From a bacterium (GTDB taxonomy: Bacteria; Patescibacteriota; Patescibacteriia; UBA1558; S5-K13), in the NCBI GenBank assembly GCA_029555085.1, contig JAKPTO010000014.1, positions 567-64,566 of the forward strand: a stretch of 64,000 nt of DNA. The letters are read 5' to 3'. A program made the position numbers and the translations under genes. Each line of letters opens with the position of its first letter. Within the stretch, counting starts at the first letter, position 1. The notes beneath the pieces are model-generated. The model did no database searches, was not told the origin of the DNA, and worked only from the letters and a program-made list of their open reading frames with translations. This document shows, piece by piece, positions 3,781 through 27,998 of this stretch.

Positions 3781-4410
3781 TTAAATTTTTTCTTCTTTCT
3801 TTTTCTTTCTTTTTTTATAAAAAATTAGAGCAATTATTAAAACAAAAACAATTATTGAAATAATTGATAATTCTTTATAATATTTTTTGAAAATAGCTTG
3901 ATTTGCGCCAAAAAAATATCCCAACAATGCAAGAATTATATTCCAAATTAAAGAACCAAGTGTTGTAAAGAGCATAAAACTCCAGATATTCATTTTTGCA
4001 AGTCCGGCAGGGATGGAAATTAATTGTCTTATTTCAAAAATTAACCTCCCAATAAAAGTTGCTAATTTATCATATTTTAGGAAATAATCCTCTGCTTTTT
4101 TTATTTTGTGTTCGTTTAAAAGTAATAATTTTGCAACTTTTGTGTTTACTAGTTTGTATACTATTGTTCGCCCAAGCGTTAATGCTAAAAAATAATTTAC
4201 TAAAGCTCCGAGTAAACTACCAATTGTCCCACATAGTATAACTAAATAAATATTTAATTGTCCTTGTTGCGCTAAATAAGCTGCCGGAGGAATAACAATT
4301 TCAGATGGAAATGGAATAAAAGAACTCTCAATTGTCATAAGAGCTATAATACTTGGATAATTTAATTTTCCAAAAATAGAAAGGAAAAAATTTGTGATTG
4401 AATGAAGCAT
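3781..4410 (-). CDS. DedA/VTT-family membrane protein
   Basis: 209 aa, multi-TM; ESSFIPFPSEIVIPPAAYLA core typical of the DedA family. Confidence 0.7.
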   Translation of the reverse strand: MLHSITNFFLSIFGKLNYPSIIALMTIESSFIPFPSEIVIPPAAYLAQQGQLNIYLVILCGTIGSLLGALVNYFLALTLGRTIVYKLVNTKVAKLLLLNEHKIKKAEDYFLKYDKLATFIGRLIFEIRQLISIPAGLAKMNIWSFMLFTTLGSLIWNIILALLGYFFGANQAIFKKYYKELSIISIIVFVLIIALIFYKKRKKKKEEKI

Positions 4411-4706
4411 AATAATTTAAAATGAATCCTCTATATTATACAATATTAATCGTAAAACAGAAAATTTTAATTGTTATTGTTTTTTATTTTTTTATTTAAT
4501 TATTTTTATTCATTATGAAATTGGACATGATTTAAATTATATCATTTTTGGTAGAAAATAAAAAAGCCAATTGTAAAGTAAGTTTAGCTTTTTAACATCC
4601 GCCTTTTTGTAATTTATTTTAATTATTTAATGTTTGACTTTTTGAATTTTTCTGAAGATAGCCAAAAAATATGAAAGCTGTCCACAGTTTACTGCGGGTG
4701 ATTTTT

Positions 4707-7409
4707 TTATTTTTTAAGATATTTTTTATTATAATGAATAGCCTTATTGATGGCATTTATTAAATCTTGTGGTTTTGCACTACCCTTAAATAGATAGTCA
4801 CTTGCTCCTAGATTTTTTGCTTTGACCCTATCTTGTTCTGTATTTAAATTACTAAACATTATAACTGGAATATTTTTTAATAATTTTTCCTTTTTAATTT
4901 TTTCTAGAAAGGTGTATCCCTGCTCAGCTACAACATTTATCATTCCGTCTTTCTCTTTTTTTCTTATAATAATATCCAAAATAACCACATCTATGTTTTT
5001 TGTTTTTAACATATCCTCTGCTTCGCTTAAATCATGTGTTGAATAAAAATTGTATCCATGTTTTTCGAAATAAATTTTGTATAGATCAACAATACTTTGC
5101 TCATCTTCAATGAATAAAATTGAACAATTATTTATTTTTGTATTTTTTATAACTGGCTTTGTATTGCTTACTGATTTTTGATTTGTTGATTTCAAATTTG
5201 ATATTTGCAATGCAAAACTGAATGTTGCTCCCTCGCCTATTTTAGAATCTTCTAATTTTAATTCTCCCCCACTATCTTCTACAATATTTTTTGCTATATA
5301 AAGTCCCAATCCAGAACCATCTGGATGAATTGATGAAGCGGTGGATCCTCTTGAAAATTTACTAAATAATTTTTCCCTATCTTCTTCAGATACTCCACAA
5401 CCAGTATCAGAGACCAAAATTTTTAAAAATTTTTTGCCATTTTTATTGATTTTTTCAAATCCAATATTTATTGATCCTTTTTCAGTATAGAAAACTGCAT
5501 TATCTAATAAATTTGAAATAACATGAGTAATTTTTTTCTGATCACATAACACTTTTGGTATTTTAAAACTTGGTTTAGTAAGGTTTATTTTTAAATTTCT
5601 AGTTTTGACTAATTTTAAATTTTTCTTTTCTTTTATCATGTCATTGATTATCTTCTCAATATTTGTTTCAATTAATGCCATTTCGATTTTCTGTCCCTCG
5701 AGTTCAAAAGCATCCCAAAAATCAGATATAGTATTACTCATTCTTTCTAATCCAATCGATGCTATTTCCAATCCCCTATTAACTTCTAACGATTTATCCT
5801 CTATCATAGAAAATGCATTTTTCATTATAGAAAGGGGTGTATTTAATTGATGATTTACAGTACGTAAAAAATCACTTTTCATATTTAAAAGTTCTTCTAA
5901 GTGTCTGTTCTTTTCTTTTATGTCTTTTGTTTGTTCTTCTACTTTGTATTTCAACTCCCTGTTAAATTTATCGAGTTCTCTTTTTTTGTCATTTATCTCA
6001 TCATATAATCTTGCATTTTCTATTGCTATAGATGCTTGAGAACCTAAAGCGCTTAAAAGTTCTAAGTCCTCTTTTGTATATGCGTCCTTTGATAATTTAG
6101 CGCCCAAAACAACAATACCTATTAAATTATTATTACTAATAAGCGGTAAGCACAAAGAGGCCTCGATGTGTTCCATGTATCTTTTTAAATCAGAGAATCC
6201 TTTGGAATCTTTTTTTGTCTTTGCATTTCTAGATAACAAACTCAATTCATCTAACAAGAGAATGCTTTTTGTTTTTTGTAAGTATTGAGTAAGAAAATTA
6301 TCTTGTACTAAACTAATACCATTTTGTTCATTAAAACCAATTGTTTTTGCTATTTGATAATGAATTGGTTTTGAATTTATATTAACAAGGAGAACGCCCG
6401 CTCTATCTAAATTCATTGCAGGTTTTATAGTGTCCACGATAAGAGAAATTATTTTATCTAAATCATTGTATTTATTTAATTCTTGGCTTAAAAATATTAA
6501 AGAATTGTGGTAATTTGTTAAATTTTTGAAAAAATATTTATCAGAAACATTTTTTAATAAAGTTCTAAGCCATGAAAATATTGTTACAAATCCTATCGCT
6601 AGAAATATACCAGCTATATACGAAGTATTATTAAAAATTCCACCAAAGGATTTTAAATAAATCCATGCTATTAAATAAAAAAGTCCATATACAAAAATAG
6701 AAACTAATAAATGTATAAATATTTTTTTAATAATAATTCTAATGTCCATCAATCTATATCTTGTAATTGCGTACCCTGTGAAACCTATAAAAAATAACGC
6801 CATTGATGGACCTATTGAACTTGCTCTACTATATCCTAGGGTTGGTAAAATCAAATTTAATAAAATTCCTAGAATTAGCGATATTAAAAAACCAATAAAA
6901 AGATATTTAATTTGGTATCTTTCAATTCCTGAGCTTTTTTTATAATTCTTAATAGTATTTACAAAAGACCAGCTAATATATACTGCAAGCAATATTGCCA
7001 TTGCCCAATAAAGAGGTCCTGGAGTAAATTCAGTTCCCCATGGTTCTATTTTAATATCAAGTACATTTAACTTCGTTGGAGATAAAATTATAATTAATAA
7101 ACTGGGTATAAAAGCAAAAAAGAGTTTTAACTTTGAAATTTTTTTATCCGACGGAAATACAATAGAAAACCATAGTAAAAAAAATGGTATTAGCGCTGGA
7201 CCAACGATAGACATTTTTGTCCAAAATAAAGCTAGATTATAATTTTTAGATAAATCTGCCATTAAAACAGATAATGTCCAGAATACTACTAAAAAAGACA
7301 AAATAGAAAGTATTCTATTTTGTCTACTTCTGAAATTTTGAAAAAATACTATTAGCCCCAAAAAACAGGCTAATAGTATTGTGATAATTGGAAGAATCAA
7401 AAAGCTCAT
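4707..7409 (-). CDS. hybrid sensor histidine kinase (multi-TM N-term, GAF, HisKA, HATPase_c, C-terminal REC)
   Basis: 900 aa; ~7 N-terminal TM helices; H-box region SDFLRTVNHQLNTPL; ATP-lid DTGCGVS...GSGLGLYIAKNIV; C-terminal receiver with ILFIEDE...DVVILDIII. Confidence 0.8.
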   Translation of the reverse strand: MSFLILPIITILLACFLGLIVFFQNFRSRQNRILSILSFLVVFWTLSVLMADLSKNYNLALFWTKMSIVGPALIPFFLLWFSIVFPSDKKISKLKLFFAFIPSLLIIILSPTKLNVLDIKIEPWGTEFTPGPLYWAMAILLAVYISWSFVNTIKNYKKSSGIERYQIKYLFIGFLISLILGILLNLILPTLGYSRASSIGPSMALFFIGFTGYAITRYRLMDIRIIIKKIFIHLLVSIFVYGLFYLIAWIYLKSFGGIFNNTSYIAGIFLAIGFVTIFSWLRTLLKNVSDKYFFKNLTNYHNSLIFLSQELNKYNDLDKIISLIVDTIKPAMNLDRAGVLLVNINSKPIHYQIAKTIGFNEQNGISLVQDNFLTQYLQKTKSILLLDELSLLSRNAKTKKDSKGFSDLKRYMEHIEASLCLPLISNNNLIGIVVLGAKLSKDAYTKEDLELLSALGSQASIAIENARLYDEINDKKRELDKFNRELKYKVEEQTKDIKEKNRHLEELLNMKSDFLRTVNHQLNTPLSIMKNAFSMIEDKSLEVNRGLEIASIGLERMSNTISDFWDAFELEGQKIEMALIETNIEKIINDMIKEKKNLKLVKTRNLKINLTKPSFKIPKVLCDQKKITHVISNLLDNAVFYTEKGSINIGFEKINKNGKKFLKILVSDTGCGVSEEDREKLFSKFSRGSTASSIHPDGSGLGLYIAKNIVEDSGGELKLEDSKIGEGATFSFALQISNLKSTNQKSVSNTKPVIKNTKINNCSILFIEDEQSIVDLYKIYFEKHGYNFYSTHDLSEAEDMLKTKNIDVVILDIIIRKKEKDGMINVVAEQGYTFLEKIKKEKLLKNIPVIMFSNLNTEQDRVKAKNLGASDYLFKGSAKPQDLINAINKAIHYNKKYLKK

Positions 7410-8831: not shown

Positions 8832-11800
8832 TTATGCTTGTTTTTGACTATATTCATTATAGAGCACCTGAACCTCTTCCTTAGTTTTTAAACGTGGATC
8901 ATCTATCAATTTAATTTTTTTAGAGCTACCATTCACAGTGCGTTCGTATACAATTGTATGTGTTTTTATTTCTTGACCTTCCACAATCAGTGTGTAGTCA
9001 TTTTCTCGCACCTCAGTCGGAACAAAACCAGTTTTCTCCACAAGTTTTCTTGATGGAAGATTGATTTCAGAAACTCGAACCCGAAGACCTTTAAAATCCG
9101 GGATAGTATTTTTGGCGAAATCAAATATTTTGTTAATTGTTTCTGTTGCTACGCCCCTACCTTGCATTTCCGGAGTCAAGAACATACCACCTATATTGTA
9201 AAATCCAGGATTGTTTGGCAACTCATACAAAGCACTCAGACCTATTATCTCATCTTCTGTGTCGCGAAGTGCCCATTTGTAGTCAACGGTTTTTTCATCT
9301 TGTTTCTTTATGCGTTCTTTGAGAGCAAAATATGGGTAAAAAACATTGGAATTTTTTTCTGCCACACGATCAAGGTGCACGCGTTCAGCACGTGTTGTTT
9401 CAGTATAGTCATTGATACTACCGAAAGTAGTCACCATCTCCCCTGATTTAAATTTTGCTCCATAACCAACTTCATTCATAACTCGCTCAATGAGTTGTGT
9501 TGTTTGCGCGACCCATTCAACAGCATAAGCATTTGTTTTAAGTTGTCCATTCGCATCAAGCAACAAAGTACGGTCATTTTCGTTTGGTTCATTGCCAATT
9601 TTTATAACAGATTCATCTCGAATACCGTGCGTTTCTTCTAAAAAGGCAAGTGCAGTAGATTTATTTATTCCACGCATTACTAAATCTAGTTGCTCGCCTC
9701 TATTAGTTGTAATAACATCAAGTCCAAGCGATTCTGCCAATTGTTGAATTTGAGATATCTCATCTTCCAAACCTACGCGTGATACTTTAATACCTTCATC
9801 ATTTAAATCATAGAACGCGATATTGATTCTACGTTCATTGTTGTGAATATCAGCCAAAATATTTTCTCTGGAAAGCAGTGATTGAAGTCTGGTTATTTTT
9901 ATATCAATTTCTTCAATAGTAAAATTTTGAACTAGTTCACCGTTGTGATAATATGCCGCTCCGGTATCGGCACTAATCTCAAAATTAGCCGGATTCATTC
10001 CATTGGTTTCCAAGATTTCAGCAATAGAATCGTATTGTTTTCCCGAGCTAATCACAACCATAACACCGCGTTCATTAAGACGTTGTAATGATGCTACTGT
10101 TTTTGCGTTTATAAACCCTCCGTCTTCAAGTGTGCCGTTTAGATCCAGTATCACCGCTTTTGGTTTTTCTGTAAAAAATTGTTTGTCTTCTTCTTGTTCT
10201 TGCATTTCATAAGCTATACACAATTTACATAATTCAGAAAAATCATTCGCCAACTCTTGTAAGTTTCTGTTTTCAAGACCGTGAGATAGGTACTTTTTAC
10301 AAATTCGGACGAATTCACTATGAATAGGTTCAGGAATGCCTACATTTTTGTTTTGTATTGCGTCTAATTCTTTTTCAGGATATGGAAGGTTGCGCAATAC
10401 CTCCGTAGAATTAGCGGATTTTACTTGCAGTGGGAACATGCCAGGATTTGTTTTATATATTTTTTGAACTAATACACCTAGAATACGCATCATTTGCTTT
10501 GCTTCATATACTTGCTTGTCGCCCTCGTATAAAGGATCAATAATGCGATACGTCCCATCTTGCTCAACCATCACATTTCGTAAATTGAATTGACCAGCAA
10601 CGACGCCTCTTTCATGCAAGGAAGCAATATCCTTAATAACAGCTGAGATTTCTTTTAAAAACACAACCCATTCTTGTGGCTCTTTCATCTCGGCAACAAT
10701 ATCCTCTGCTTGATGGCCTTTAATAAGTTCCATAATGAGCATATTGCGTTCGCGGTCATATTCATAACATTGCGGAAAACGATTAGCCAAATCGCCGGCT
10801 TGTTGTTGTAATGCTTGAGTGTATTGATATTCTTCATCCAAATATTGCAAACCGATTTTAATAGCAACCTTTTTACCACTTTCCTCATTAATTGCTTCAA
10901 AAACTTTGGATTCCTTTCCTAAGCCAAGCATTTTTGAGAATTGATATTTCTTCCCATCTATAATAAGTCCGCCTTTTTGTTCAAAAATGGACATCCAGAT
11001 AGCTCGTTCTTGTGCAACAAAATCTTTAAATAATTTATCTTTTCGGTTTTCTGGAAAATTTAATCGTTGCCACACCTCCAGTAAACTTTGAAAATCTTTT
11101 GTGATTATTGGATGACCGGATTCGTGTCGCATACCGGTTATTCTACCAGCAATGCCATCGGCAAATTCAGGTAATCCGATCAAGACGCTGACAGTTTCTC
11201 CATTTTCTTTGGTTGCTGACAGAACAAACTGATTAAACATGTGTGAAATAGAGTACTCTGTCCAACGCTCAAACGGAATGGCGCGATATATTGATTCAAT
11301 ATCTGTATACACCTGAGGATTACAATAGTTTTCTACGGTTATTTTATTTTTCATATGTTCAAAAACTGCAATATCAATAACCCCATTTTCGTAATTTTGT
11401 AGTGCTGTATGCAACAGCTCTGTCCCAATAATATATGTCGCGACTTGTTCATCTTCTGGCCGTTTACCAAATACCGTGGTAATATCTAATGCTTCCAATA
11501 ATTTTATTTTTGAAATAAATCTTTTTACATTTTTATCGCACTGCTCTCCGTCTGGTAAGCCAAATTCCATGAGTTGATTGTTTGTAATCATTGACTTTAG
11601 AAACATCTCTCTTTGTTTAAGTAGTTGTTCACCTCTCTCAGTATATTCTATGGTTGCATTACCAAACTCACCGACATTTACTGAATATTCTTTATCCCTA
11701 ATGATTTGGCGATAGAAACTTAAAAGCATTCTAGAAAGCTCAAACTCTATTGATGATGCGTCACGTTCAGGACTGCCATTTATATCAATTAGTTGAATAT

Positions 11801-13919
11801 TGCCTTCTTGATCCATTAAAATATTTCCGAAATGTAGATCACCGTGAGTGAATTCAGGTATAACTGAATCGGAAAAATCACGATCAAGCATAGGAGTTGA
11901 TTTTTTTACCCACTCAAGCAACGTGCTCATATTAACTCGTGTTTCGCCGTTTATTTTTATTAGCTCATGGCGAGCAAATTCTTGTAAATTTTTATCGTCA
12001 ATATTTTGTAAGAACTCAAGACCGCGTTCAATTGAAGAAAGATGATGATCGGAAAAATATCGATCTTCCACATGTTTTTCTCCTTTTGACCACAGTTCTC
12101 GTTTTAAATCCATAAAAAGATTATTAAATTCGTTTTGTGTCACCTCTCTAGTTGGTTTTTTTCCAAAGTATTGGTCATCAAGCGAACCACCTTCAATAAA
12201 GGGTGATACATAATATACTTCATCATCTTTCACATTGCTATCAATCAATTCAGGTATAATGGAAATACCAACTTTCTGCATCTGACAGGTTCGTTGGATT
12301 TGTCGCAACAAATGTTCGTATTGATTTCCATACGGCGCTCTTTTTATGACAAATTTTTTACCTTGCTCGTTTTCCATAATGCTGACTGATGCGCCCATTG
12401 ATGTGCGTTTGTCCAAATTTCCTTCCTCGACCGGTTTTAATTGCTCATAGTAAAAAGGGTAATCATATTCTTCTATATAACGTGGGATGTATACATTATC
12501 TGAATCTCGCATCTGTTTATGTCCAAGAGGAATCCATTTATATCGTTCATTGCCATTTTTATCTCGCTTCAGAGCGCGGGTTGTCAATCGATGATGTGGA
12601 AAATAATCCCAACCGGGAACGAGCTGAAAGTTCATTTTTTTTGAGGTTCCATTTACGGTAATAGGTACAGCAGAAGGATTGAAGTCCAAAATACCCCGTC
12701 CATATTTTCCACCAGCATACTTTATTTCATTAAAGGCGCGATAATAAAATGCCATTCTTTTAATGTATTCTTCTTTGGAGTGTTTAGTATTAAACATATC
12801 TGGAGAAAGTGTTCCACGATAAAACGACATCCAACTTTCAAGACTGCCCAATATATCAATGGATTCTATAAGTTCGTCCAGTTCTGTCGCTTGATTTTTT
12901 TGCAAAGCATCTTCTATTTCCAAATTTTTTCGCTCTTCTTGCTTTTCCTTCATGATTTTCATAAGAATGCTGAACAGTTCCCCGTTTTCTCGCAGAGTAT
13001 CAATTGGGCTTTGATCGTCTTTAATATCTGGTATATTGAATTTAGCAAATTCGGAACGATGAGAAGAGATGTATTTGTTTATCTTGGTGACGGCTGATTC
13101 ATATTGTTGCTGTACGGTATCTTTTTTTTCTCTTAGACGATATTGCCATTTTTTTTCGTCCTGATCTTCAACATTTATCAAACATCGTCTTACTAATTCC
13201 GCCGCGTCAATAATTTTAACCGGATTTTCTCTATTATCCATATCTTCTTTGTTGCGACCGGACTGAGCATATGCCTGCTCATTAAGTTTTTCTAAAATTT
13301 TAAGCGTTTCCTGTGTCTCGTCTTGGTATCTTCCCAATGCACGATATAAATTACCTTCATATCCAATATTAATTTGCAGGCCAGGTGAATAAATCGTTTC
13401 TGCGCCACGTGCGATTTGTTGCAAGTTGGAAAAAGCGAGATAATTTGCCATATCAGGCAAGAGTTGTCTATCAGAAATGTCCGGATTTTTAAATTTTGGA
13501 GAAAATGAAAGGCCAAAAAAAACAATAGGTTGATTTTCTCTTATGGCTTCAACCATCGTGTGTATTATATTGGCGTCGTATTCTGGACTTCTATATGTAC
13601 TGCCAGTTCTTCGTATTTCCCCTGGACGTCCAGATAAATATTCAAGCAGAGCAACAGCTGTTACCTCGGGTGTTTTTTCAAATTCTCGTTTTTCTAAATT
13701 AGTAAGACCCTCAGGAGTATATTTTTCATAATATGATCGTAGAGAATCCTTAATGCGTCTGGAAATCTGTCCAGGAAATATCGTACTTTCGGGAATAAAA
13801 GGAGGTTTGTACTCGGGAGTTGTTGGGTATTCATTAATTTTATGTGATTCGTGGTTTTGCTCGATTATTTTTTGTTCTTGTTCTTTTTGTTGGTAATGTA
13901 AAGCATTTTTTTCTAGCAT
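8832..13919 (-). CDS. giant multidomain protein: PvcA/Dit1 isonitrile-synthase-like domain + APH-like kinase + second kinase-like domain + HAD hydrolase + C-terminal GNAT
   Basis: 1695 aa. aa~120-470: QPIVFFGLSFSPKFKNPD...LLPDMANYLAF...IYSPGLQINIGYEGNLY aligns by eye with PvcA QPIHFILPAFPAKSPNP...LPDMGEQVAL...VYAPGARITICSDGRVF. aa~505-720: THGDLHFGNILMD...LIDINGSPE (APH/choline-kinase Brenner motif). aa~990-1150: LGLGKESKVF...KKVAIKI glycine loop + VAIK but catalytic loop reads VVAGQFNLRN (no HRD Asp). aa~1254-1465: VILDLNGTL...VISSGK...INKST...GNEPNEND (HAD motifs, DxN not DxD). aa~1520-1660: GGMFLTPEMQGRGVATE GNAT motif A. Higher GC than flanks. Confidence 0.6.
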   Translation of the reverse strand: MLEKNALHYQQKEQEQKIIEQNHESHKINEYPTTPEYKPPFIPESTIFPGQISRRIKDSLRSYYEKYTPEGLTNLEKREFEKTPEVTAVALLEYLSGRPGEIRRTGSTYRSPEYDANIIHTMVEAIRENQPIVFFGLSFSPKFKNPDISDRQLLPDMANYLAFSNLQQIARGAETIYSPGLQINIGYEGNLYRALGRYQDETQETLKILEKLNEQAYAQSGRNKEDMDNRENPVKIIDAAELVRRCLINVEDQDEKKWQYRLREKKDTVQQQYESAVTKINKYISSHRSEFAKFNIPDIKDDQSPIDTLRENGELFSILMKIMKEKQEERKNLEIEDALQKNQATELDELIESIDILGSLESWMSFYRGTLSPDMFNTKHSKEEYIKRMAFYYRAFNEIKYAGGKYGRGILDFNPSAVPITVNGTSKKMNFQLVPGWDYFPHHRLTTRALKRDKNGNERYKWIPLGHKQMRDSDNVYIPRYIEEYDYPFYYEQLKPVEEGNLDKRTSMGASVSIMENEQGKKFVIKRAPYGNQYEHLLRQIQRTCQMQKVGISIIPELIDSNVKDDEVYYVSPFIEGGSLDDQYFGKKPTREVTQNEFNNLFMDLKRELWSKGEKHVEDRYFSDHHLSSIERGLEFLQNIDDKNLQEFARHELIKINGETRVNMSTLLEWVKKSTPMLDRDFSDSVIPEFTHGDLHFGNILMDQEGNIQLIDINGSPERDASSIEFELSRMLLSFYRQIIRDKEYSVNVGEFGNATIEYTERGEQLLKQREMFLKSMITNNQLMEFGLPDGEQCDKNVKRFISKIKLLEALDITTVFGKRPEDEQVATYIIGTELLHTALQNYENGVIDIAVFEHMKNKITVENYCNPQVYTDIESIYRAIPFERWTEYSISHMFNQFVLSATKENGETVSVLIGLPEFADGIAGRITGMRHESGHPIITKDFQSLLEVWQRLNFPENRKDKLFKDFVAQERAIWMSIFEQKGGLIIDGKKYQFSKMLGLGKESKVFEAINEESGKKVAIKIGLQYLDEEYQYTQALQQQAGDLANRFPQCYEYDRERNMLIMELIKGHQAEDIVAEMKEPQEWVVFLKEISAVIKDIASLHERGVVAGQFNLRNVMVEQDGTYRIIDPLYEGDKQVYEAKQMMRILGVLVQKIYKTNPGMFPLQVKSANSTEVLRNLPYPEKELDAIQNKNVGIPEPIHSEFVRICKKYLSHGLENRNLQELANDFSELCKLCIAYEMQEQEEDKQFFTEKPKAVILDLNGTLEDGGFINAKTVASLQRLNERGVMVVISSGKQYDSIAEILETNGMNPANFEISADTGAAYYHNGELVQNFTIEEIDIKITRLQSLLSRENILADIHNNERRINIAFYDLNDEGIKVSRVGLEDEISQIQQLAESLGLDVITTNRGEQLDLVMRGINKSTALAFLEETHGIRDESVIKIGNEPNENDRTLLLDANGQLKTNAYAVEWVAQTTQLIERVMNEVGYGAKFKSGEMVTTFGSINDYTETTRAERVHLDRVAEKNSNVFYPYFALKERIKKQDEKTVDYKWALRDTEDEIIGLSALYELPNNPGFYNIGGMFLTPEMQGRGVATETINKIFDFAKNTIPDFKGLRVRVSEINLPSRKLVEKTGFVPTEVRENDYTLIVEGQEIKTHTIVYERTVNGSSKKIKLIDDPRLKTKEEVQVLYNEYSQKQA

Positions 13920-14045: not shown

Positions 14046-14097
14046 ATATTATTTTTATTTTCTCACAATTCAAACAAAAAGTAAAATAAAAAAATCG
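14046..14097 (-). promoter_or_regulatory. L module: sigma70-like promoter (TTGAAT-N16-TAATAT on minus strand) upstream of the giant gene; near-identical copy at 19359-19405
   Basis: ~50 nt atattattttt(t)attttctcacaattcaaacaaaaagtaaaataaaaa repeated ~5.3 kb apart, each 65-180 nt upstream of a minus-strand start codon (13919 and 19288). Confidence 0.5.
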
Positions 14098-14120
14098 CTC
14101 TCAAAAAAGCGATTATTATT
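14087..14120 (-). terminator. rho-independent terminator for the mod-res-rSAM transcript
   Basis: minus-strand atcgct-tttttgag-agcgat hairpin followed by a T7 run, ~90 nt downstream of the radical-SAM stop. Confidence 0.55.
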
Positions 14121-14205: not shown

Positions 14206-15198
14206 TTATTTCCTTACAAAAGTATTACAAGTGGAACAAGGAATGTCCACTAGATCTTTATTATTTGAATGAATTAATTTTTTGGAGAAAAAATTTCTTG
14301 AAAGTTTATAATATTTATTATTCCAAATATCTTTCAATTTTTGATTCAATATATTTCCATAAGAAAATCTATCAAAGTCCCCTCCGCAACATGGATACAA
14401 GCTTCCATCTGGTCTTATCATGCATCCTAAATATAACCAAAAACAAGTTCGTTTATATGTTTTTGTTTTAGGGCTATCATTATTATCATCATATCCCAAA
14501 TTTTCTTGTCTATATGTAATTCTGTCTACTTTTATTTCTCTCAAAAATTCATCAATCTGATTTAACTCGTCTTTTATATGATTAAAAGTGACAACCTGAA
14601 CATCTACAATGGGATATTTCTTTTTGTTTTTTATTTTATACTCCATTACATCCCTTAAGCCCTGTTTTACAATTTCTACATCTCCACCTTGTCTATACTG
14701 AGAGTATTTCTCTTGTGAAAAACCATCCAAACATGGTTCTAATACTGTAAGACCTGAGTCAAATAATTTTTTAATATCATCTTTTTTAAATAGATTAAAG
14801 TTTGTACTAATAAGAGTGCTTATGTTATTTTTGTTTGCATAAGATATCATCTCATATATATCTTTGTTTAGAAGTGGTTCGCCCATATCATACAATGATA
14901 CACGAAGCGCGTATTTTTTTATTTTATCAATAATACTTTTAAAATCTTCTAGTGTCATTATTCTTTTTTCTTTTGTATTGGTCTGCCATGACTGACACGA
15001 TGGGCATCTTAAATTGCACGCAGAACATGGATCTATTCTATAAATAAATGGCCTCGAGATACACCTTCCTCGTCTAAATGTCATTTCAAGAAATGAAATA
15101 ATAACATTTATGGCCTTAGTAAATGTCAAAAATGGGAGTAATGAAAAAAAATGTCTTTTAATGAATAAACCTAGCTTATTATAAAATGAAAGCTTCAT
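14206..15198 (-). CDS. radical SAM protein with SPASM/twitch-like Cys-rich C-terminus
   Basis: 330 aa; CNLRCPSC radical-SAM cluster motif (within CSACNLRCPSCQ); C-terminal CFWLYLGC...YPCCGGD...CSTC Cys cluster pattern; N-terminal hydrophobic segment; same strand as and downstream of mod-res. Confidence 0.6.
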   Translation of the reverse strand: MKLSFYNKLGLFIKRHFFSLLPFLTFTKAINVIISFLEMTFRRGRCISRPFIYRIDPCSACNLRCPSCQSWQTNTKEKRIMTLEDFKSIIDKIKKYALRVSLYDMGEPLLNKDIYEMISYANKNNISTLISTNFNLFKKDDIKKLFDSGLTVLEPCLDGFSQEKYSQYRQGGDVEIVKQGLRDVMEYKIKNKKKYPIVDVQVVTFNHIKDELNQIDEFLREIKVDRITYRQENLGYDDNNDSPKTKTYKRTCFWLYLGCMIRPDGSLYPCCGGDFDRFSYGNILNQKLKDIWNNKYYKLSRNFFSKKLIHSNNKDLVDIPCSTCNTFVRK

Positions 15199-15569: not shown

Positions 15570-17708
15570 TCACATAGTTACCTTCTTACAAAAGTTCACA
15601 AACTCGTCTTTTGATAATAATTTTTCGTTACCTTCCACATACTGAAAAATACGCCATTTATCATCTCGCAAAATCGGTAAATAAAATATCTGATTGGTTA
15701 GTTTAGAAGCTTGTTTATATGCTTTTTTCAATTCTTCCAACTTCGTTTTATAGATATTATTATCAAAACCCCCGACCATATTTGCAGAAATATTTACACT
15801 TTTTACTTCAAAAATATGTATTCTATTAAAGCTGTCTTTCATCACAAAGTCTGGATATGAAGAATGCGGTGCGCCGAGATAATACTCAAACTTTATCGGC
15901 GAGTTTGCCACATAATTTTTACCCCACAGATACACTTGTTTCGTATCTAAAAACTCTGGTTCTGTTTCTCCAAATAAATCAGTTGCTCCGGCTTTTGGAT
16001 TCTTCCTCCCAACTGTTACTCTTTTACCAACTCGTCCATCGCCAACCGCTACATCATCTTTTGCAAGGTCCTTTAAGATACTCGTCCACGCACGCTCCGC
16101 TTCACTATCAAATGCAAACTTCTCTTTGCCGTCATTGCGTTTCCATACCCAGTCGCCAATATCTACATAATTGCCGTTGTCGGTGTAATGTGAAGTCAGA
16201 GCAAAGGAAACTTCTACTTCTTTTCCGTTTTCGTCTTTTACTACTTCCATGCTTTTCTCATAATCATTCACATATTGACTGCTTTCATTTGCTACGGTAT
16301 CAATATTTTCCACAAACTCACGCCATTTTGTATAAGTCGTCGCATAATTTTCGCCCATTTCTCGCACGCTGTTTTCGGCTTTCACAAAATTTCTCCATAA
16401 AGAAAAAATAGAACTCGGAGTAGATACGATTGATTGTTTTTTCAAGAATGTCGTTAGATTAAAACTGGCCTTTTTGGTCAAGGATTTTAACCGTGTTGTC
16501 TTAATTTTGATCTCATTAGTAATAATTTCGCTATCTTGCCACAATTTCACGCCAAAACTTTTTCGCAAGTCTCCGGGAACAATGCCCCAAATCCATGCGG
16601 TCATAGCTAGTCTTTGTGCGTCTTCTGATAATGATTCAAAATCAAGTAGTCGCGGGTTCCGTCTTACTCGCCCCATCACTTGCTCATCCAATTGCTTACT
16701 CTTACTATCCCGTATTTGAAAAAGCATACAGGCGCGTGGAATATCCCACCCCTCAGTAATCACCATTTTGAAAATGATAATATCAATCGTACTTGAATTT
16801 TCTTTTGCATAATCTTTCCACTTGCTCACAGGCAACTTTTTGGCCTTAAAAGTGTCGTTGGTGTCGCATTGCTTCTCGTTATTAACAATTAGCATCCACT
16901 TTAGATCCGTGTGTTCAGCTTTTTCCAGTTCCTTTTTAATCTCGGCAATTTCAGCATCCGCTTTGTCTTTGTTGCTAATCTGGATAATTAGACATGGGTT
17001 TACGCCCAGCATGTTGCGGTAATCTTTTTTTATTTCTTCAAACTTCGTAATCGCATCAGTCACTTTGGCATCAGGGTCGTCAACCAACTCAATATCTTTG
17101 ATCAGTTTCGCATTTACCGCGTCATCGTTTTTAATCTCAACATCAGGGTGTTGTCCACGCGAAAGTTTTGGCGTGGCAGAGAAGTTGTATATTTTGGTAA
17201 AGAATTTTTCTGATAAACTATCCAGATTGTTGGTGGCAATATGGCACTCGTCTTTTATTAAATAGACTTTTTTATCCAAGCCACCTATCAATTCCGTCCC
17301 AGTTACTGTGCGTAAAAATCCTTCCATTGCTCCTTGCATCAGTCGTCCGCCTTTTTTATATAAATCGCGAGGTAAAAGATAAACATTATAGTCGGTTGGC
17401 ACAAACAATCTCTCTTCACCTGCAATTTCGCTACTAATTAAATATGGCTTCAATTCCGGAAAATTTCCTTTTACTGAGTATTGTTGAAACTTCTCATAAT
17501 TTTGTGTGGCGAGATCGCCTTTTGAAAGTGTAGAAACAAGAAAAATCACATTTTTATCAGCTGATAAAATGCGGTTCATCATATCCGCCATCATATAGGT
17601 TTTACCACTTCCTGTTGGCGCTTTGAAAGTTATCTCATCTTGTGCAGAGGTGAGTTCAACAAGAGAAGTGACGGCGTTTTGCTGTAGGTCTATTGCTTCT
17701 TGTTTCAT
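15570..17708 (-). CDS. res: Type III restriction enzyme Res subunit (SF2 helicase + C-terminal PD-(D/E)xK nuclease)
   Basis: 712 aa; Walker A APTGSGKT, DEAH-like LIKDECH, C-terminal PDFVMKD...IFEVKS nuclease motif; start 2 nt after mod stop. Confidence 0.75.
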   Translation of the reverse strand: MKQEAIDLQQNAVTSLVELTSAQDEITFKAPTGSGKTYMMADMMNRILSADKNVIFLVSTLSKGDLATQNYEKFQQYSVKGNFPELKPYLISSEIAGEERLFVPTDYNVYLLPRDLYKKGGRLMQGAMEGFLRTVTGTELIGGLDKKVYLIKDECHIATNNLDSLSEKFFTKIYNFSATPKLSRGQHPDVEIKNDDAVNAKLIKDIELVDDPDAKVTDAITKFEEIKKDYRNMLGVNPCLIIQISNKDKADAEIAEIKKELEKAEHTDLKWMLIVNNEKQCDTNDTFKAKKLPVSKWKDYAKENSSTIDIIIFKMVITEGWDIPRACMLFQIRDSKSKQLDEQVMGRVRRNPRLLDFESLSEDAQRLAMTAWIWGIVPGDLRKSFGVKLWQDSEIITNEIKIKTTRLKSLTKKASFNLTTFLKKQSIVSTPSSIFSLWRNFVKAENSVREMGENYATTYTKWREFVENIDTVANESSQYVNDYEKSMEVVKDENGKEVEVSFALTSHYTDNGNYVDIGDWVWKRNDGKEKFAFDSEAERAWTSILKDLAKDDVAVGDGRVGKRVTVGRKNPKAGATDLFGETEPEFLDTKQVYLWGKNYVANSPIKFEYYLGAPHSSYPDFVMKDSFNRIHIFEVKSVNISANMVGGFDNNIYKTKLEELKKAYKQASKLTNQIFYLPILRDDKWRIFQYVEGNEKLLSKDEFVNFCKKVTM

Positions 17709-17710
17709 AA

Positions 17711-19288
17711 TTATTCGTCTTCAAGAGTTTTTTGTGTATTTTCAAAATTTTCACACACCCATTTTATTTTTTCTTTTACTCCAAGTTTTTCCTGCCCGTA
17801 CAAAGTTTCATCTATTTTTTCAAATGGTTCGTCAGAGTACGGTGCTACAGTGGCAATATCATAAACATCAAGATTGCCGTCGAGTGGTTTATTTTTCTCG
17901 TTCCACTTAAAATCTTTACTTCCGTCATAACATTCACCAGTCATTACTCGTTTGAGACGTTTGCTTGTTACATCATTCACAATTCCGTTTGGTGTGGTGT
18001 CGGTTATCTCATTGGCAGTGGCAAGAATAAACTGTCTTTTTCCACCATCTTCCTTATTAAGTTCCAGTACTGCTTGCCCAGTTGTCCCTGAACCAGCAAA
18101 GAAGTCGAGGATAATTAAATTTCTGTTAACTAAACCAATTAAATATTTGATTAGTGATATAGGTTTTGGGTTATCAAATATATTATTTTCTATTATGCTT
18201 ATCAATTCCTTCCCACCATCTTCATTTGTCCCAACCCCACATTCTTCTTTATTTATTATATTTGACGGTTTTTTCTTTCTTTCTCCCTCTCTTTCATACC
18301 TTATAGAGAATTCATTACTTTTTATATAAAATACTGTGCCATTTTTAACCTCTTTGTCTACTGTCTCTTGAGTCCATTTAAAATTACCTCTCAACTCAAA
18401 GTCCTTATCTGCTTTACCGTTTGCTATATTTATATTAGTTAGAAGTTGAGTTTTCTTTTTATAACCATCTTTAAATTCCCCATTAATCTTAAAAATAACA
18501 GAATCCTTATTAAATTTTATTGTTCGTATTGGGTTTCCACTGTTTAACAATGGCATATCTCCACCTACTATTATACCCGCACTCAAACCCTCGTCTCTTT
18601 TTCCATTTTGATAACATAAGACATATTCATATTTTTTTCTTATATCTTTACCCAAGCTGGGGGGGGTAGCGGTTTTATTCCACATAAAATTTGCTAAGAA
18701 ATTACTCTCCTCGAATACCTCATCAAAAAGCCCCTTTACATACGCTTGATTTTTATCATCAATACTACAAAAGATTACCCCATTATCACTTAAAAGCTGT
18801 CTAGCAAGAACTAGGCGCGGATAAAGCATAGAAAGCAGGTTGTCTCTCGTGATGGCATTGTTGTAATTTGTCTGTGCAAACTCTCCCATAGAGTCCTTGC
18901 CATATGGCGGATCAATATAGATCACATCAATCTTTCCGCGGTATTCAATCAGCAAATTGAGAAGTGCATCATAGTTATCTCCGATGATGAGTTTGTGTGT
19001 TTGTGCGTTCTTGTCTTGTACAAAACTCAATTCATTGTTTTTCTTAAAATACTTTATCGTGTCGGTCATTTTCTCCAGTCGTTTGTCAAAGTGAAAGCCT
19101 GTGCGTTTATATGTTGTTCCAAGCTCGGCGATCATAATCGCTTCATTGATAGTATCTGTATTTGTAATGAGTTTTTTCAAGAGATCAGCATTCGTTTTTT
19201 CTATAATCTTGTCGGCAATACGTTTATCTATCTCGGTTATGAGATCGTCTTTAACTTTTCTTATATTGTTTGTTGTAGTATCTTTCAT
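17711..19288 (-). CDS. mod: Type III R-M Mod DNA methyltransferase (beta-class, N6A/N4C)
   Basis: 525 aa; motif IV IDPPYGKD precedes motif I ILDFFAGSGTTG (beta-class order as in Type III Mod); contains a C8/G8 tract. Confidence 0.8.
   Translation of the reverse strand: MKDTTTNNIRKVKDDLITEIDKRIADKIIEKTNADLLKKLITNTDTINEAIMIAELGTTYKRTGFHFDKRLEKMTDTIKYFKKNNELSFVQDKNAQTHKLIIGDNYDALLNLLIEYRGKIDVIYIDPPYGKDSMGEFAQTNYNNAITRDNLLSMLYPRLVLARQLLSDNGVIFCSIDDKNQAYVKGLFDEVFEESNFLANFMWNKTATPPSLGKDIRKKYEYVLCYQNGKRDEGLSAGIIVGGDMPLLNSGNPIRTIKFNKDSVIFKINGEFKDGYKKKTQLLTNINIANGKADKDFELRGNFKWTQETVDKEVKNGTVFYIKSNEFSIRYEREGERKKKPSNIINKEECGVGTNEDGGKELISIIENNIFDNPKPISLIKYLIGLVNRNLIILDFFAGSGTTGQAVLELNKEDGGKRQFILATANEITDTTPNGIVNDVTSKRLKRVMTGECYDGSKDFKWNEKNKPLDGNLDVYDIATVAPYSDEPFEKIDETLYGQEKLGVKEKIKWVCENFENTQKTLEDE
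18659..18666. repeat. G8 (coding-strand C8) homopolymer inside mod
   Basis: ctgg+gggggg read directly; encodes ...ATPPS...; highly unusual in a ~27% GC background. Confidence 0.8.
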
Positions 19289-19358: not shown

Positions 19359-19441
19359 CAATATTATTTTTTATTTTCTCACAATTCAAACAAAAAGTAA
19401 AATAAAAATTGCCATTTAATAGACAATTTTATATATCATTG
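19359..19441. repeat. composite L+R module (promoter for mod operon plus hairpin) immediately downstream of tRNA-Ser
   Basis: L part 19359-19405 matches 14046-14097 (TTGAAT-N17-TAATAT on minus strand); R part 19397-19441 matches 8561-8606. Confidence 0.55.
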
Positions 19442-19453
19442 TGATAATTGTTT

Positions 19454-19545
<92 letters not shown>

Positions 19546-19583: not shown

Positions 19584-19658
19584 TGGCTGGGGAGGTAGGG
19601 TTCGAACCTACGCATGTCGGCTTCAAAGGCCGATGCCTTACCACTTGGCTACTCCCCA
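19584..19658 (-). tRNA. tRNA-Gln (anticodon UUG), CCA encoded
   Basis: revcomp TGGGGAGTAGCCAAGTGGTAAGGCATCGGCCTTTGAAGCCGAC...GGTTCGAACCCTACCTCCCCAGCCA; closely resembles canonical bacterial tRNA-Gln. Confidence 0.8.
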
Positions 19659-22828: not shown

Positions 22829-24148
22829 ATGCACATCGCTTTAAGAAAAATTTTAGTTTATATTTCAGTAATAATTTTTATTATTGCTTCTGCTTTTTTT
22901 ATTTTTTTATCATTTGGATATAGATATTCTTTTACAAAAAGGAAATTTGAAAAAACATCTGTTGCATATATTAAATCATATCCAAGGGGCGCAGATGTAT
23001 TTATAAATAAAAAGAAATACAAAACCAAAACTCCGATTCAGATAAATTATCTAAAACCAGATGTTTACAATATTGGTGTTGTAAAAGATAAATATCAAAA
23101 ATGGAGTAAACAGATTTATATAAAGGCCGAAGAAACAGTTTTTTTAGAAGATATTTCTTTGTTTTACTCAGATCCAGAAATTTCTATACTGAAAGATGGA
23201 TATTTTCAGGAAATTTCTATTTCGCCAAATAAAGAAATGATTTTATTTTACGATAATGAAAATAAAAATATCAATATATTTGATATAAAATCTAATAAAT
23301 TTTCCACTATCGAAAAAAATATTTTAGCAATCAATTATTCATTGTGGTCTCCGGATAATCAAAAATTATTACTTGAAGCAAATGATAAATATTTAATATC
23401 TTTTCCGTATTTAAATAAAACAGTTTTGGATTTATCACAATATTTAAATTTTAAAGTAAAAAGTTTCGCTTGGGACAAGTTTAATTCAAATATGCTTTAT
23501 ATAATTGATACATCTGGTAATTTATATGCATTTGATGTTGTGAATAAAAAATTAGAAAATAAAAAATTGAATAATATTCTTGCCGTCAAACCAGAGGGAG
23601 ATAAATTATTTTATATTCAAAAACAAAAAGATCAAACAATATTTACTTATTATAAAAAAAATCAACAAGATGCCGAATTTATAATTGTTCCATATAGCGA
23701 TAATTATGAATTTTTGGAACCATATAGAGATTATTTTTGTCTTTTAGATAAAAATTCATATAGAATGTATCTTATGGATCCAAATCAGAAAGATTATATT
23801 ATAAAGATACTTTACAATGTAGAAGATGTTTCGTGGGATTTATATAATAGAATTTTACTTTTAAAGAACGATTTAGAGATACGGACCTATGATGTAAAAA
23901 CTCAGGAAGAAAAAACAATAAACAGATCAAGTCAAAAAATAGATAATGTATTTTGGCATAGAAATAATAACCATATATTCTATGAATCAAATAATGAATT
24001 GAAGGTCATAGAACTTGATGATAGATGGGGAAGAAATGAATTTTTAATTACAAAAGATATGACATCGCTACATGTTTTAGAAAATAGACGCGGTAATATA
24101 TTGTATTATGTTACTAAAAATGGGTTTATAAAAAATATTATTCAATAG
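22829..24148 (+). CDS. membrane-anchored PEGA-domain protein with predicted beta-propeller-like repeats
   Basis: 439 aa; N-terminal TM; SYPRGADVFINKKKYKTKTPIQI...PDVYNIGV PEGA-like segment; rest low complexity/repetitive. Confidence 0.45.
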   Translation: MHIALRKILVYISVIIFIIASAFFIFLSFGYRYSFTKRKFEKTSVAYIKSYPRGADVFINKKKYKTKTPIQINYLKPDVYNIGVVKDKYQKWSKQIYIKAEETVFLEDISLFYSDPEISILKDGYFQEISISPNKEMILFYDNENKNINIFDIKSNKFSTIEKNILAINYSLWSPDNQKLLLEANDKYLISFPYLNKTVLDLSQYLNFKVKSFAWDKFNSNMLYIIDTSGNLYAFDVVNKKLENKKLNNILAVKPEGDKLFYIQKQKDQTIFTYYKKNQQDAEFIIVPYSDNYEFLEPYRDYFCLLDKNSYRMYLMDPNQKDYIIKILYNVEDVSWDLYNRILLLKNDLEIRTYDVKTQEEKTINRSSQKIDNVFWHRNNNHIFYESNNELKVIELDDRWGRNEFLITKDMTSLHVLENRRGNILYYVTKNGFIKNIIQ

Positions 24149-26477: not shown

Positions 26478-27998
26478 TTATTTTCTATTTATATATTGTT
26501 TTTCATAATATTCAAGGTATTCGCCAGATTTTATTTCTTTCCACCAATTAATATTTTCTTTGTACCATTTTAAAGTTTCTTTTATTCCATCTTCAAAATT
26601 TATTTTTGGTTCCCAACCTAATTCATTTTTAATTTTTGAAAAGTCAATTGCATAACGTCTATCATGACCTCGTCTATCTGGAACCCGTTCAATCATTTCT
26701 TCGCCTTTATTAAAATAGTTCAAAATCAAATGAGTTATTTCTAGATTTGTTTTTTCACTATCTCCACCAACACAATATGTTTCTCCGATTTTTCCTTCAT
26801 GCAATATTAAATCCACTGCGCTGGAGTGATCATCAACATGAATCCAATCGCGGATATTCAATCCATCACCATAAAGAGGAATTTTTTTGTCTTCAATTAA
26901 GTTAGTTGCGAAAAGTGGAATTAATTTTTCTGGAAATTGATATGGGCCGTAATTATTTGAACAATTTGAAATTGTTATTGGGAGTCCGAATGTGTGAAAA
27001 TAAGCACATACTAGATGATCTGATGCTGCTTTTGAAGAGGAATATGGACTTCTTGGATTATACGCCATTAGTTCATGAAATTTTCCATCAGCTCCAAGTT
27101 CTCCAAATACTTCATCTGTTGATATGTGGTGGAATCTTTTTATGCCTAATTCTTTGGCAATTCTAAGTAATACATTTGTTCCCAGTATGTTTGTTCTTAT
27201 AAAAGTATCTGGATCCATGATTGATCTATCAACATGAGATTCTGCTGCAAAATGAACTACCCAGTCGCAATCTTTCATCGCCTTTTTTACATCTTCTTCG
27301 TTACATATGTCTCCTTTTATAAATGTATAATTAGGATTATCTTGTAATGATTCAAGATTTTTTAAGTTACCAGCATAAGTTAATTTATCCAAATTTACAA
27401 TTTTATAATTTGGATATTTTTTTAACATGTAATAAATAAAATTCGTTCCTATAAATCCTGCCCCACCAGTAATTAATATTTTTCTTTCCTTATTTGTACT
27501 CTGGGATAAATAATTATCTTTTGTTTTTTGTTGATATAGTTCTTCTCTTATCTTCATCCAAATTTTTCCAAGTTCATTTCTTCCTGTTCTGTTTTCTCCC
27601 CAGCCCCAAAAATCATCATACGGAGAATCCTCTATTATTAATTTGTTTTCTGTTTGTAGAAGTTTGTGTAAGACATACGGATTTTGTTCTACTTTGTTTC
27701 TGATGATATCCTCCATTATTGGAATTTTTATATCTTCCCAATTTTTTGGCACTTTGTCTTTATTAGCTTTAGCGATTTTGTAAGCATCATGGGCAGATTT
27801 TGCTTTATGTATTTGTTCAACTAGATCTGGGTCTGTTTCAAAAAAATGAGATGCCTGATAAGCGTGTTCAGATGTTTGCCATGTTCTTCCGCACCACTCA
27901 ACCTGAAAACTAGAAAAATTAGAAAAAACATAGAATTCTCTTTCAAAAAAACCAATTATGTTTCCAGATGTTTCAAGTTTTGAATCTCTAAATTGCAT
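26478..27998 (-). CDS. rmlB: fusion: N-terminal NADAR/YbiA (DUF1768) domain + dTDP-glucose 4,6-dehydratase
   Basis: aa 1-150 FSNFSSFQVEWCGRTWQTSEHAYQASHF and DDFWGWGENRTGRNELGKIWMKIREEL closely match E. coli YbiA; aa 170-506 KILITGGAGFIGTNF...YSSSKAASD RmlB SDR signature. Confidence 0.75.
   Translation of the reverse strand: MQFRDSKLETSGNIIGFFEREFYVFSNFSSFQVEWCGRTWQTSEHAYQASHFFETDPDLVEQIHKAKSAHDAYKIAKANKDKVPKNWEDIKIPIMEDIIRNKVEQNPYVLHKLLQTENKLIIEDSPYDDFWGWGENRTGRNELGKIWMKIREELYQQKTKDNYLSQSTNKERKILITGGAGFIGTNFIYYMLKKYPNYKIVNLDKLTYAGNLKNLESLQDNPNYTFIKGDICNEEDVKKAMKDCDWVVHFAAESHVDRSIMDPDTFIRTNILGTNVLLRIAKELGIKRFHHISTDEVFGELGADGKFHELMAYNPRSPYSSSKAASDHLVCAYFHTFGLPITISNCSNNYGPYQFPEKLIPLFATNLIEDKKIPLYGDGLNIRDWIHVDDHSSAVDLILHEGKIGETYCVGGDSEKTNLEITHLILNYFNKGEEMIERVPDRRGHDRRYAIDFSKIKNELGWEPKINFEDGIKETLKWYKENINWWKEIKSGEYLEYYEKQYINRK

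Follow-up and report, generated by a model that had tools for sequence, protein, structure and literature searches.

The window analysed here is a stretch of 64,000 nucleotides (nt) from contig JAKPTO010000014.1 (assembly GCA_029555085.1, positions 567 to 64,566 of the forward strand). On its minus strand it carries two adjacent genes, mod and res, and the reading frame of mod contains an uninterrupted run of eight C residues. This report concerns that tract, the reading frames produced by different tract lengths, and the lengths found in public assemblies of the same strain. The host is an uncultured bacterium of the Patescibacteria, or Candidate Phyla Radiation (CPR), from metagenomes of the anaerobic-digester type.

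The mod-res pair and the poly-C tract

The mod gene (17711 to 19288, minus strand) encodes a 525 amino acid (aa) Type III beta-class N6-adenine DNA methyltransferase, as judged from Pfam, PADLOC and PDB matches and from its conservation profile. The domain match in Pfam is PF01555 (N6_N4_Mtase, 3.6e-30), and the best of the PADLOC Type III methyltransferase models is MTase_III (2.4e-71). Matches in the PDB are to the Mod subunits of Mbo45V from Mycoplasma bovis (2e-53), of entry 6k0w (4e-35) and of EcoP15I (4.5e-25). Located by translation and motif position, motif IV (DPPY, aa 126-129, 18902 to 18913, minus strand) stands towards the N-terminus, followed by the target recognition domain (TRD) and then by motif I (FAGSG, aa 397-401, 18086 to 18100, minus strand), which binds S-adenosylmethionine (AdoMet). 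Type III Mod proteins typically have this order, that of the beta class.

The res gene (15570 to 17708, minus strand) encodes a 712-aa Type III restriction subunit, identified from Pfam and PADLOC matches, motifs and the junction sequence. Pfam reports PF04851 (ResIII, 2.5e-15) over aa 7-181 and PADLOC reports REase_III (1.3e-21). Two helicase motifs of superfamily 2 (SF2), GSGKT (aa 33) and DECH (aa 153), are present. Towards the C-terminus, aa 619-636 (PDFVMKDSFNRIHIFEVK) form a nuclease-like PD...EVK motif, which is assigned by sequence motif alone, its residues D619, E633 and K635 being invariant in 11 orthologues. Searches of the PDB, run with the single sequence and again with a profile of 11 sequences, gave no solved Res that matched this one. 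After the mod TAA stop come 2 nt and then the res ATG, on the same strand, and this mod-res order was identical in all orthologous loci examined. Because the ribosome-binding site (RBS) of res is weak and its start lies only 2 nt past the mod stop, res translation probably depends on ribosomes finishing mod; from its junction, res thus appears to be translationally coupled to mod. Taken together, the sequence comparisons confirmed mod and res as a restriction-modification (R-M) pair of Type III. In such systems a Mod2Res1/2 complex cleaves DNA with the help of ATP and requires two asymmetric sites in inverse orientation; Res needs Mod for DNA recognition, and is functionally OFF without it.

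The tract lies at 18659 to 18666, where direct reading of the plus strand gives GGGGGGGG, within the surrounding sequence ...CCCAAGCTGGGGGGGGTAGCGG...; it is thus G8 on the plus strand and C8 on the coding, minus strand. It corresponds to nt 623-630 of mod and falls in codons 208-210 (ACC CCC CCC, for Thr208, Pro209 and Pro210), the coding context being ...FMWNKTATPPSLGKD... and the encoded peptide ...NKTATPPSLGK.... The run and the residues ATPPS that it encodes are therefore as described in a first-pass annotation of this DNA, which also gave the genome a GC (guanine plus cytosine) content of ~27%; measured over the window, it is 29.2%. No other run of G or C in the window exceeds 5, the next longest being two G5 and 13 C5. 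Runs of at least eight G or C are expected 0.03 times per 64 kb under an independent, identically distributed (iid) model, and 0.17 times under a first-order Markov model. CCC accounts for 8% of the Pro codons in the long open reading frames (ORFs) of the window and is used twice in the tract; for a Thr-Pro-Pro peptide, the probability of drawing ACC CCC CCC with the codon usage of the window is ~8e-4. The C8 tract is compositionally unusual, yet not astronomically so at the scale of a whole genome, as extrapolation to a genome of ~1 Mb and the same composition yields ~0.4-2.6 such runs by chance.

Tracts of C5 to C12 were simulated. Lengths of 8 +/- 3n stay in frame, and every other length leads to a stop within 5 codons. 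While C8 yields the 525-aa Mod, the product predicted for C7 has 215 aa and ends in ...TPPAWVKI, since the -1 frame reaches a TAA (18640 to 18642, minus strand) 5 codons past the tract. The product predicted for C9 has 213 aa and ends in ...TPPQLG, the +1 frame meeting a TAA (18648 to 18650, minus strand) 3 codons past the tract. Truncation of Mod near residue ~210 upon a +/-1 change, as previously predicted, is borne out by these simulations, and both products were found in assemblies (see below). The same prediction placed the cut before motif IV, and this has to be corrected: DPPY starts at aa 126, upstream of the tract, so that the cut falls between motif IV, which precedes it, and the TRD and motif I, which follow. 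From these motif positions, both stubs retain motif IV and are devoid of the TRD and of motif I. As pure speculation, the C7 allele forms a C_CCC_CCA slippery heptamer at which a -1 ribosomal slip would restore the wild-type sequence, and its OFF state may then be leaky.

Tract length in public metagenome assemblies

Contigs bearing the strain were found in metagenome assemblies of the Joint Genome Institute (JGI), ENA and Logan, and DNA was fetched for 20 loci, with C8 in six of them (L001-L006), C7 in four (L007 and L018-L020) and C9 in ten (L008-L017). The exact 525-aa Mod was present on at least 22 contigs (45 index blocks), and the six such loci that were fetched all had C8. The 215-aa product of a C7 tract (P0121) was found on 5 contigs, 4 of which were confirmed by DNA, and the 213-aa product of a C9 tract (P0122) on 15 contigs, 10 of them confirmed in the same way. 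On one 72-kb JGI contig, traced from a 314-aa protein (P0020) that matches the C-terminal 60% of Mod without a difference, the tract is C7 and mod falls into two parts (215 + 314 aa). A search with the N-terminal fragment returned exactly two truncated products at 100% identity, P0121 and P0122, and none corresponding to C5, C6, C10 or C11; no member of 524 or 526 aa was present in the Mod protein cluster. The many N-terminal matches of ~200-250 aa were considered as frameshifts at the same site and rejected, most of them being due to contig ends or to TRD divergence. A DNA pattern that allows a gap of variable length at the tract and is otherwise exact matches the window and all fetched loci; it had no match in a metagenome contig collection, which lacks the organism.

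Relative to the window, each fetched locus showed the tract change and 0-1 single-nucleotide polymorphism (SNP) over 1-13.6 kb, the tract being the sole indel (L005, treated below, is excluded from this count). All C9 contigs had 0 mismatches over up to 5.5 kb. Nine other homopolymers of the same 5.3 kb (A or T runs of 7-8, and C5) were invariant in all of the 8-18 assemblies covering each. In every C7 or C9 contig that covers it, res was full length (712 aa), and no second inactivating mutation was found in mod or res of any of these OFF contigs. The length heterogeneity that the first-pass annotation proposed to look for does exist when assemblies are examined: C7, C8 and C9 are all present at this site, with no other indel. 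We conclude that tract length differs among otherwise isogenic genomes, and that this variation is real and recent.

Homopolymers are classic sites of indel error, and miscalls during sequencing or assembly could mimic both C7 and C9. An example of error is provided by L005 (ENA ERZ2648087 NODE_3513, 1.7x coverage), in which 32 single-base deletions are scattered over 9.7 kb, along with 9 mismatches. The deletions fragment res, the radical SAM (rSAM) gene and a large ORF, and look like low-coverage assembly error, not biology. Even in this contig, full of 1-nt deletions, the tract is C8. The 20 variant contigs, by contrast, come from three pipelines (JGI, ENA and Logan) and have zero other indels each, and the nine other homopolymers, including an A8, did not vary in the same contigs. 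The variants are moreover consistent within sample series, unlike random error. An artefactual origin of C7 and C9 is, in our opinion, very improbable.

Two further differences between contigs were considered as variation of the same kind and rejected. Calls of 250 versus 330 aa for the rSAM protein reflect the start chosen by the gene caller on identical DNA, and a murA product of 393 aa in L004 is due to a single SNP.

The distribution of the variants among samples is uneven. All 15 C9 contigs come from runs ERR616-ERR618xxxx (ERR6160201-ERR6188836), and C7 was found in JGI 3300036964, in JGI 3300036967 and in one SRA run, 3 of the C7 contigs belonging to one JGI series. No publication was found when the literature was searched by sample accession. 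Such clustering is what clonal spread would give, and the tract might then be a stable strain polymorphism, in which one old +1 and one old -1 event founded lineages that came to dominate reactors, with no appreciable switching at present. The age of the events argues otherwise: the sequences are otherwise identical, with 0 mismatches in every C9 contig when compared over up to 5.5 kb, so that the changes must be very recent compared to the substitution rate. One JGI series contains both C8 (3300036947) and C7 (3300036967). Furthermore, an A>G SNP at 22914 occurs both in L003, a C8 contig, and in L007, which has C7; the C7 deletion therefore post-dates the SNP, having arisen on a background that is also present as C8. 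A polymorphism fixed long ago thus seems a poor explanation, to which we give little credit.

Origin of the tract and setting of the operon

The two closest orthologues of Mod, 88% and 85% identical, encode the same peptide, TATPPSLGK, with other codons: ACT GCC ACT CCT CCA AGC in the 88% orthologue and ACT GCC ACC CCT CCG AGC in the 85% orthologue. Genome and metagenome scans of ~25 further relatives revealed no run of six or more G or C in mod. The genome contig scan gave no conspecific genome, its best hit being 72% identical (a Saccharibacteria metagenome-assembled genome, MAG), and no tract was present in 9 full-length relatives; the protein-based metagenome contig scan recovered relatives of at most 85% identity, none of them with a G/C tract of six or more in mod. 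Conservation of the tract across the family was accordingly rejected. Because the orthologues use CCT, CCA or CCG and the ~25 relatives are without a G/C tract, the tract is lineage-specific, and by these sequence comparisons it is recent and built by synonymous changes to C in an AT-rich genome.

The two subunits differ in their conservation. MAGs labelled Saccharibacteria, Roizmanbacteria and Paceibacterota have Res proteins of 85-90% identity, and a Bacteroidales MAG has one of 60%, whereas the Mod proteins of the same relatives are only 57-72% identical. In the conservation profile, differences in Mod are concentrated in aa 200-380 (30-40% identity, versus 80-97% at both ends), the conserved parts being aa 1-200 and aa 400-525, and the tract sits at the 5' edge of the variable TRD region. 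Such central variability in the alignment matches the allelic TRD variation for which Type III mod genes are known, and suggests that this Type III system moves horizontally and has allelic, swapped TRDs.

Among truncated relatives, homopolymer frameshifts were verified in one pair only, at poly-A. In these two loci (L035 and L037, positions 4001-5577 of each, on contigs of 402 kb and 203 kb), whose Mod is ~70% identical, mod is out of frame in both genomes through 1-nt deletions at two poly-A tracts 16 nt apart, one being A8+A4 and the other A7+A5, where A8+A5 would be in frame. These lesions map to the part of mod that is homologous to the C8 tract (aa ~203-212). No further difference occurs in 1577 nt, and res, at 719 aa, is intact. 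The locus of the 88% orthologue (L032, 3659-5995 of a 310-kb contig) has surroundings of the mobile or defence-island type: upstream of mod-res are genes for a controller-like HTH_3 protein of 69 aa and a serine recombinase of 501 aa, and downstream are a HARE-HTH/PDDEXK gene and one that resembles a Type I hsdR. The window differs from it in being without the HTH (helix-turn-helix) gene.

In the window, the pair has chromosomal housekeeping genes as its neighbours (rplI, murA, alaS and the gene of a C-terminal processing protease), and the short AlaS is 82-86% identical to proteins of "Patescibacteria group bacterium". The pair itself belongs to a 5.3-kb mod-res-rSAM cassette bracketed by direct repeats. 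Copy 1 (48 nt, 19361 to 19408, minus strand), found as a secondary BLAST match, is upstream of mod, and copy 2 (47 nt, 14046 to 14092, minus strand), found as a BLAST match, comes after the rSAM gene and a terminator-like hairpin (14093-14114). On the minus strand the repeat reads TTTTTATTTTACTTTTTGTTTGAATTGTGAGAAAATAAAAA(A)TAATAT and holds a promoter-like element, TTGAAT-N16/17-TAATAT; copy 1 is, by its sequence, the likely promoter region of mod-res. The repeat lies 47 nt downstream of a tRNA-Ser gene (19455-19544), and a tRNA-Gln gene is at 19584-19658. The arrangement resembles a cassette whose insertion duplicated the promoter region of the gene downstream, which encodes a protein of 1695 aa.

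One of the C9 contigs, L017 (Logan ERR6186064_303690, 1-1144), joins window positions 14242->14093, via the repeat, to 19360->18416, so that the rSAM gene's 3' end, with the terminator, runs through the repeat into the 5' end of mod. The junction is the one expected of a circularised or tandemly duplicated cassette; alternatively, it could result from a wrong join of the de Bruijn graph at the 48-nt repeat, inside which most Logan contigs break.

The third cassette gene (14206-15198, minus strand) encodes a radical SAM/SPASM protein of 330 aa, which matched only generic radical-SAM families, including a weak match to prokaryotic viperin (pVip, 4e-10). Directly downstream of repeat copy 2, the 1695-aa ORF (8832-13919, minus strand) encodes a multidomain protein of unusual architecture, with DIT1/PvcA-like, protein-kinase, HAD-hydrolase and GNAT acetyltransferase domains. 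Elsewhere in the window, a 506-aa fusion (26478-27998, minus strand) combines an N-terminal NADAR / riboflavin-intermediate N-glycosidase-like domain with a dTDP-glucose 4,6-dehydratase; the N-terminal domain also matches the NCBIfam model 'NADAR family anti-phage protein' (4e-20).

Several of these observations bear on a second alternative to a switch, in which the tract is a neutral hotspot that arose by chance synonymous drift and became the weakest point of a horizontally acquired cassette on its way to loss, C7 and C9 being dead-end pseudogenes. The GC content of mod and res (34-38%, versus 29% for the window), the flanking repeats and the nearby tRNA genes suggest recent acquisition. The tract is specific to one lineage and absent from ~25 relatives, a run of its length is expected ~0.4-2.6 times per Mb by chance, and the mod gene of another lineage is broken at ordinary poly-A tracts, so that in this mod family homopolymer frameshifts arise without a special tract as well. 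A decaying operon, on the other hand, does not readily account for the absence of any second lesion in the 3.7 kb of mod and res of OFF contigs. Nor does it account for a change at one and the same site, in both directions, in 20 of 20 OFF contigs, while ON is still the commonest state. To form the tract, three synonymous sites had to be C in spite of the strong codon bias (8e-4), and this occurred in exactly the gene class in which switches are known. We therefore judge decay to be unlikely, although it deserves more attention than the other two alternatives.

A candidate contingency switch and its known counterparts

The reading that we favour, and hold to be probable, is that C8 is a contingency locus which, by strand slippage, switches a chromosomal Type III R-M operon ON and OFF. 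Slipped-strand mispairing at replication would add or remove one C; C8, with its 525-aa frame, would be the ON state, and C7 and C9, with their stubs, the OFF states. The stubs should be inactive, being without the TRD and the AdoMet-binding motif I. Both methylation and restriction would be lost in the OFF state, because Res needs Mod and res appears coupled to mod, and Res expression is expected to drop through this coupling. Polarity on res is likewise suggested by the junction sequence. As loss of Mod would silence methylation and restriction together without self-restriction, the OFF state would be safe for the cell. Tract changes would be frequent and reversible, and the population may benefit either by bet-hedging phage defence against DNA uptake, or through methylation-dependent gene regulation. 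Slippage at a Type III mod gene had been proposed in the first-pass annotation, and what stands of it is the Type III identity and the existence of tract-length variants that turn the Mod frame OFF in otherwise identical assemblies; the placement of motif IV does not stand.

Some of the observations weigh against a switch. By chance, ~0.4-2.6 such runs would be expected in a ~1-Mb genome. The evidence for variants comes from assembled contigs, each of which displays one tract length. The clustering of C9 in one range of runs and of three C7 contigs in one JGI series could stem from as few as two clonally spread mutational events. As the tract is absent from relatives, there is no long-term conservation that would argue for selection. 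Finally, C8 is shorter than the criterion of at least 9 bases used for mononucleotide tracts in the survey of simple sequence repeats (SSRs) in Type III mod genes by Atack et al. (2018; PMC5909438), which the C9 allele reaches.

A wider proposal can be made, tentatively, and we think it may well turn out wrong. An ultra-small, probably episymbiotic, DNA-scavenging bacterium would stochastically switch a whole Type III R-M system by means of a lineage-specific C8 tract built by synonymous C substitutions, which would make it the first documented contingency locus in the CPR; the cassette bracketed by the 48-nt repeat, with its circle or tandem junction, would be a possible second layer of variability. 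Phase-variable methyltransferases of this type have drawn essentially no attention in CPR/Patescibacteria, a full-text literature search having found no paper on phase variation in the group.

Phase variation of Type III methyltransferases is an established phenomenon in host-adapted pathogens, and sequence surveys predict it for about one sixth of Type III mod genes. What is offered here is a ready natural system, since the ON state and both OFF states of one strain are visible in public assemblies. Read-level tract counts over digester time series could tell whether defence and methylation are switched stochastically in an uncultured, genome-reduced bacterium. If the switch is true, public metagenome time series could be used to gauge phase variation and how it relates to DNA uptake or phage pressure. 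Annotation is affected as well: from sample to sample, mod is recorded either as a single 525-aa protein or in two fragments, and MAG pipelines will misreport a pseudogene.

In the survey cited above, SSRs were found in 17.4% of the Type III mod genes of REBASE, including G[n] tracts in Helicobacter pylori and Campylobacter upsaliensis (PMC5909438). The modH, modJ and modL genes of H. pylori and modU of C. upsaliensis resemble the present gene in having a G/C homopolymer inside the ORF of a Type III mod, so that a +/-1 change truncates Mod, in the variable central TRD between conserved ends, and in belonging to small, low-GC genomes. Their hosts are host-adapted pathogens, whereas ours is a free-living or episymbiotic member of the Patescibacteria from digesters. 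Their tracts have at least 9 bases across alleles, while the one described here has 8, occurs in one lineage only and is known from sequence alone. The same logic governs modA, modB and modD of Haemophilus influenzae and Neisseria, where slippage at an SSR toggles a Type III methyltransferase with res downstream. In those genes tetra- or pentanucleotide repeats near the 5' end are used and the phasevarions (phase-variable regulons) are experimentally proven; res is inactive in several of these systems, and intact here.

Mbo45V of M. bovis, whose Mod is the closest solved homologue of ours (E 2e-53), has been proven by biochemistry to be a Type III enzyme (Mod2Res1); the genome it comes from is tiny, and mod carries a frame-shifting (AG)n repeat (PMC3498834). 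In Mbo45V, as in MmyCI of M. mycoides, the repeat is thus a dinucleotide instead of a homopolymer. The Res of Mbo45V is also larger (94.7 kDa, versus 712 aa here), and three mod genes are present there versus a single one here.

With respect to the tract itself, the nearest parallels are in Campylobacter jejuni, also a ~30% GC genome, with an intragenic G8 in cj1139 and G9 in the Type IIG R-M gene cj0031. The G8 tract of cj1139 switches at a high rate, mostly by insertion (PMC3401435), a bias that agrees with C9 being the commoner OFF form here (15 contigs, versus 5 with C7). These C. jejuni loci encode a glycosyltransferase and a Type IIG enzyme, and switching rates were measured there, the present case consisting of assembly variants only. 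The system described here would belong to a known kind, an SSR-switched Type III mod, and it is notable mainly for its CPR/Patescibacteria host and for the presence of the ON and both OFF states in public data.

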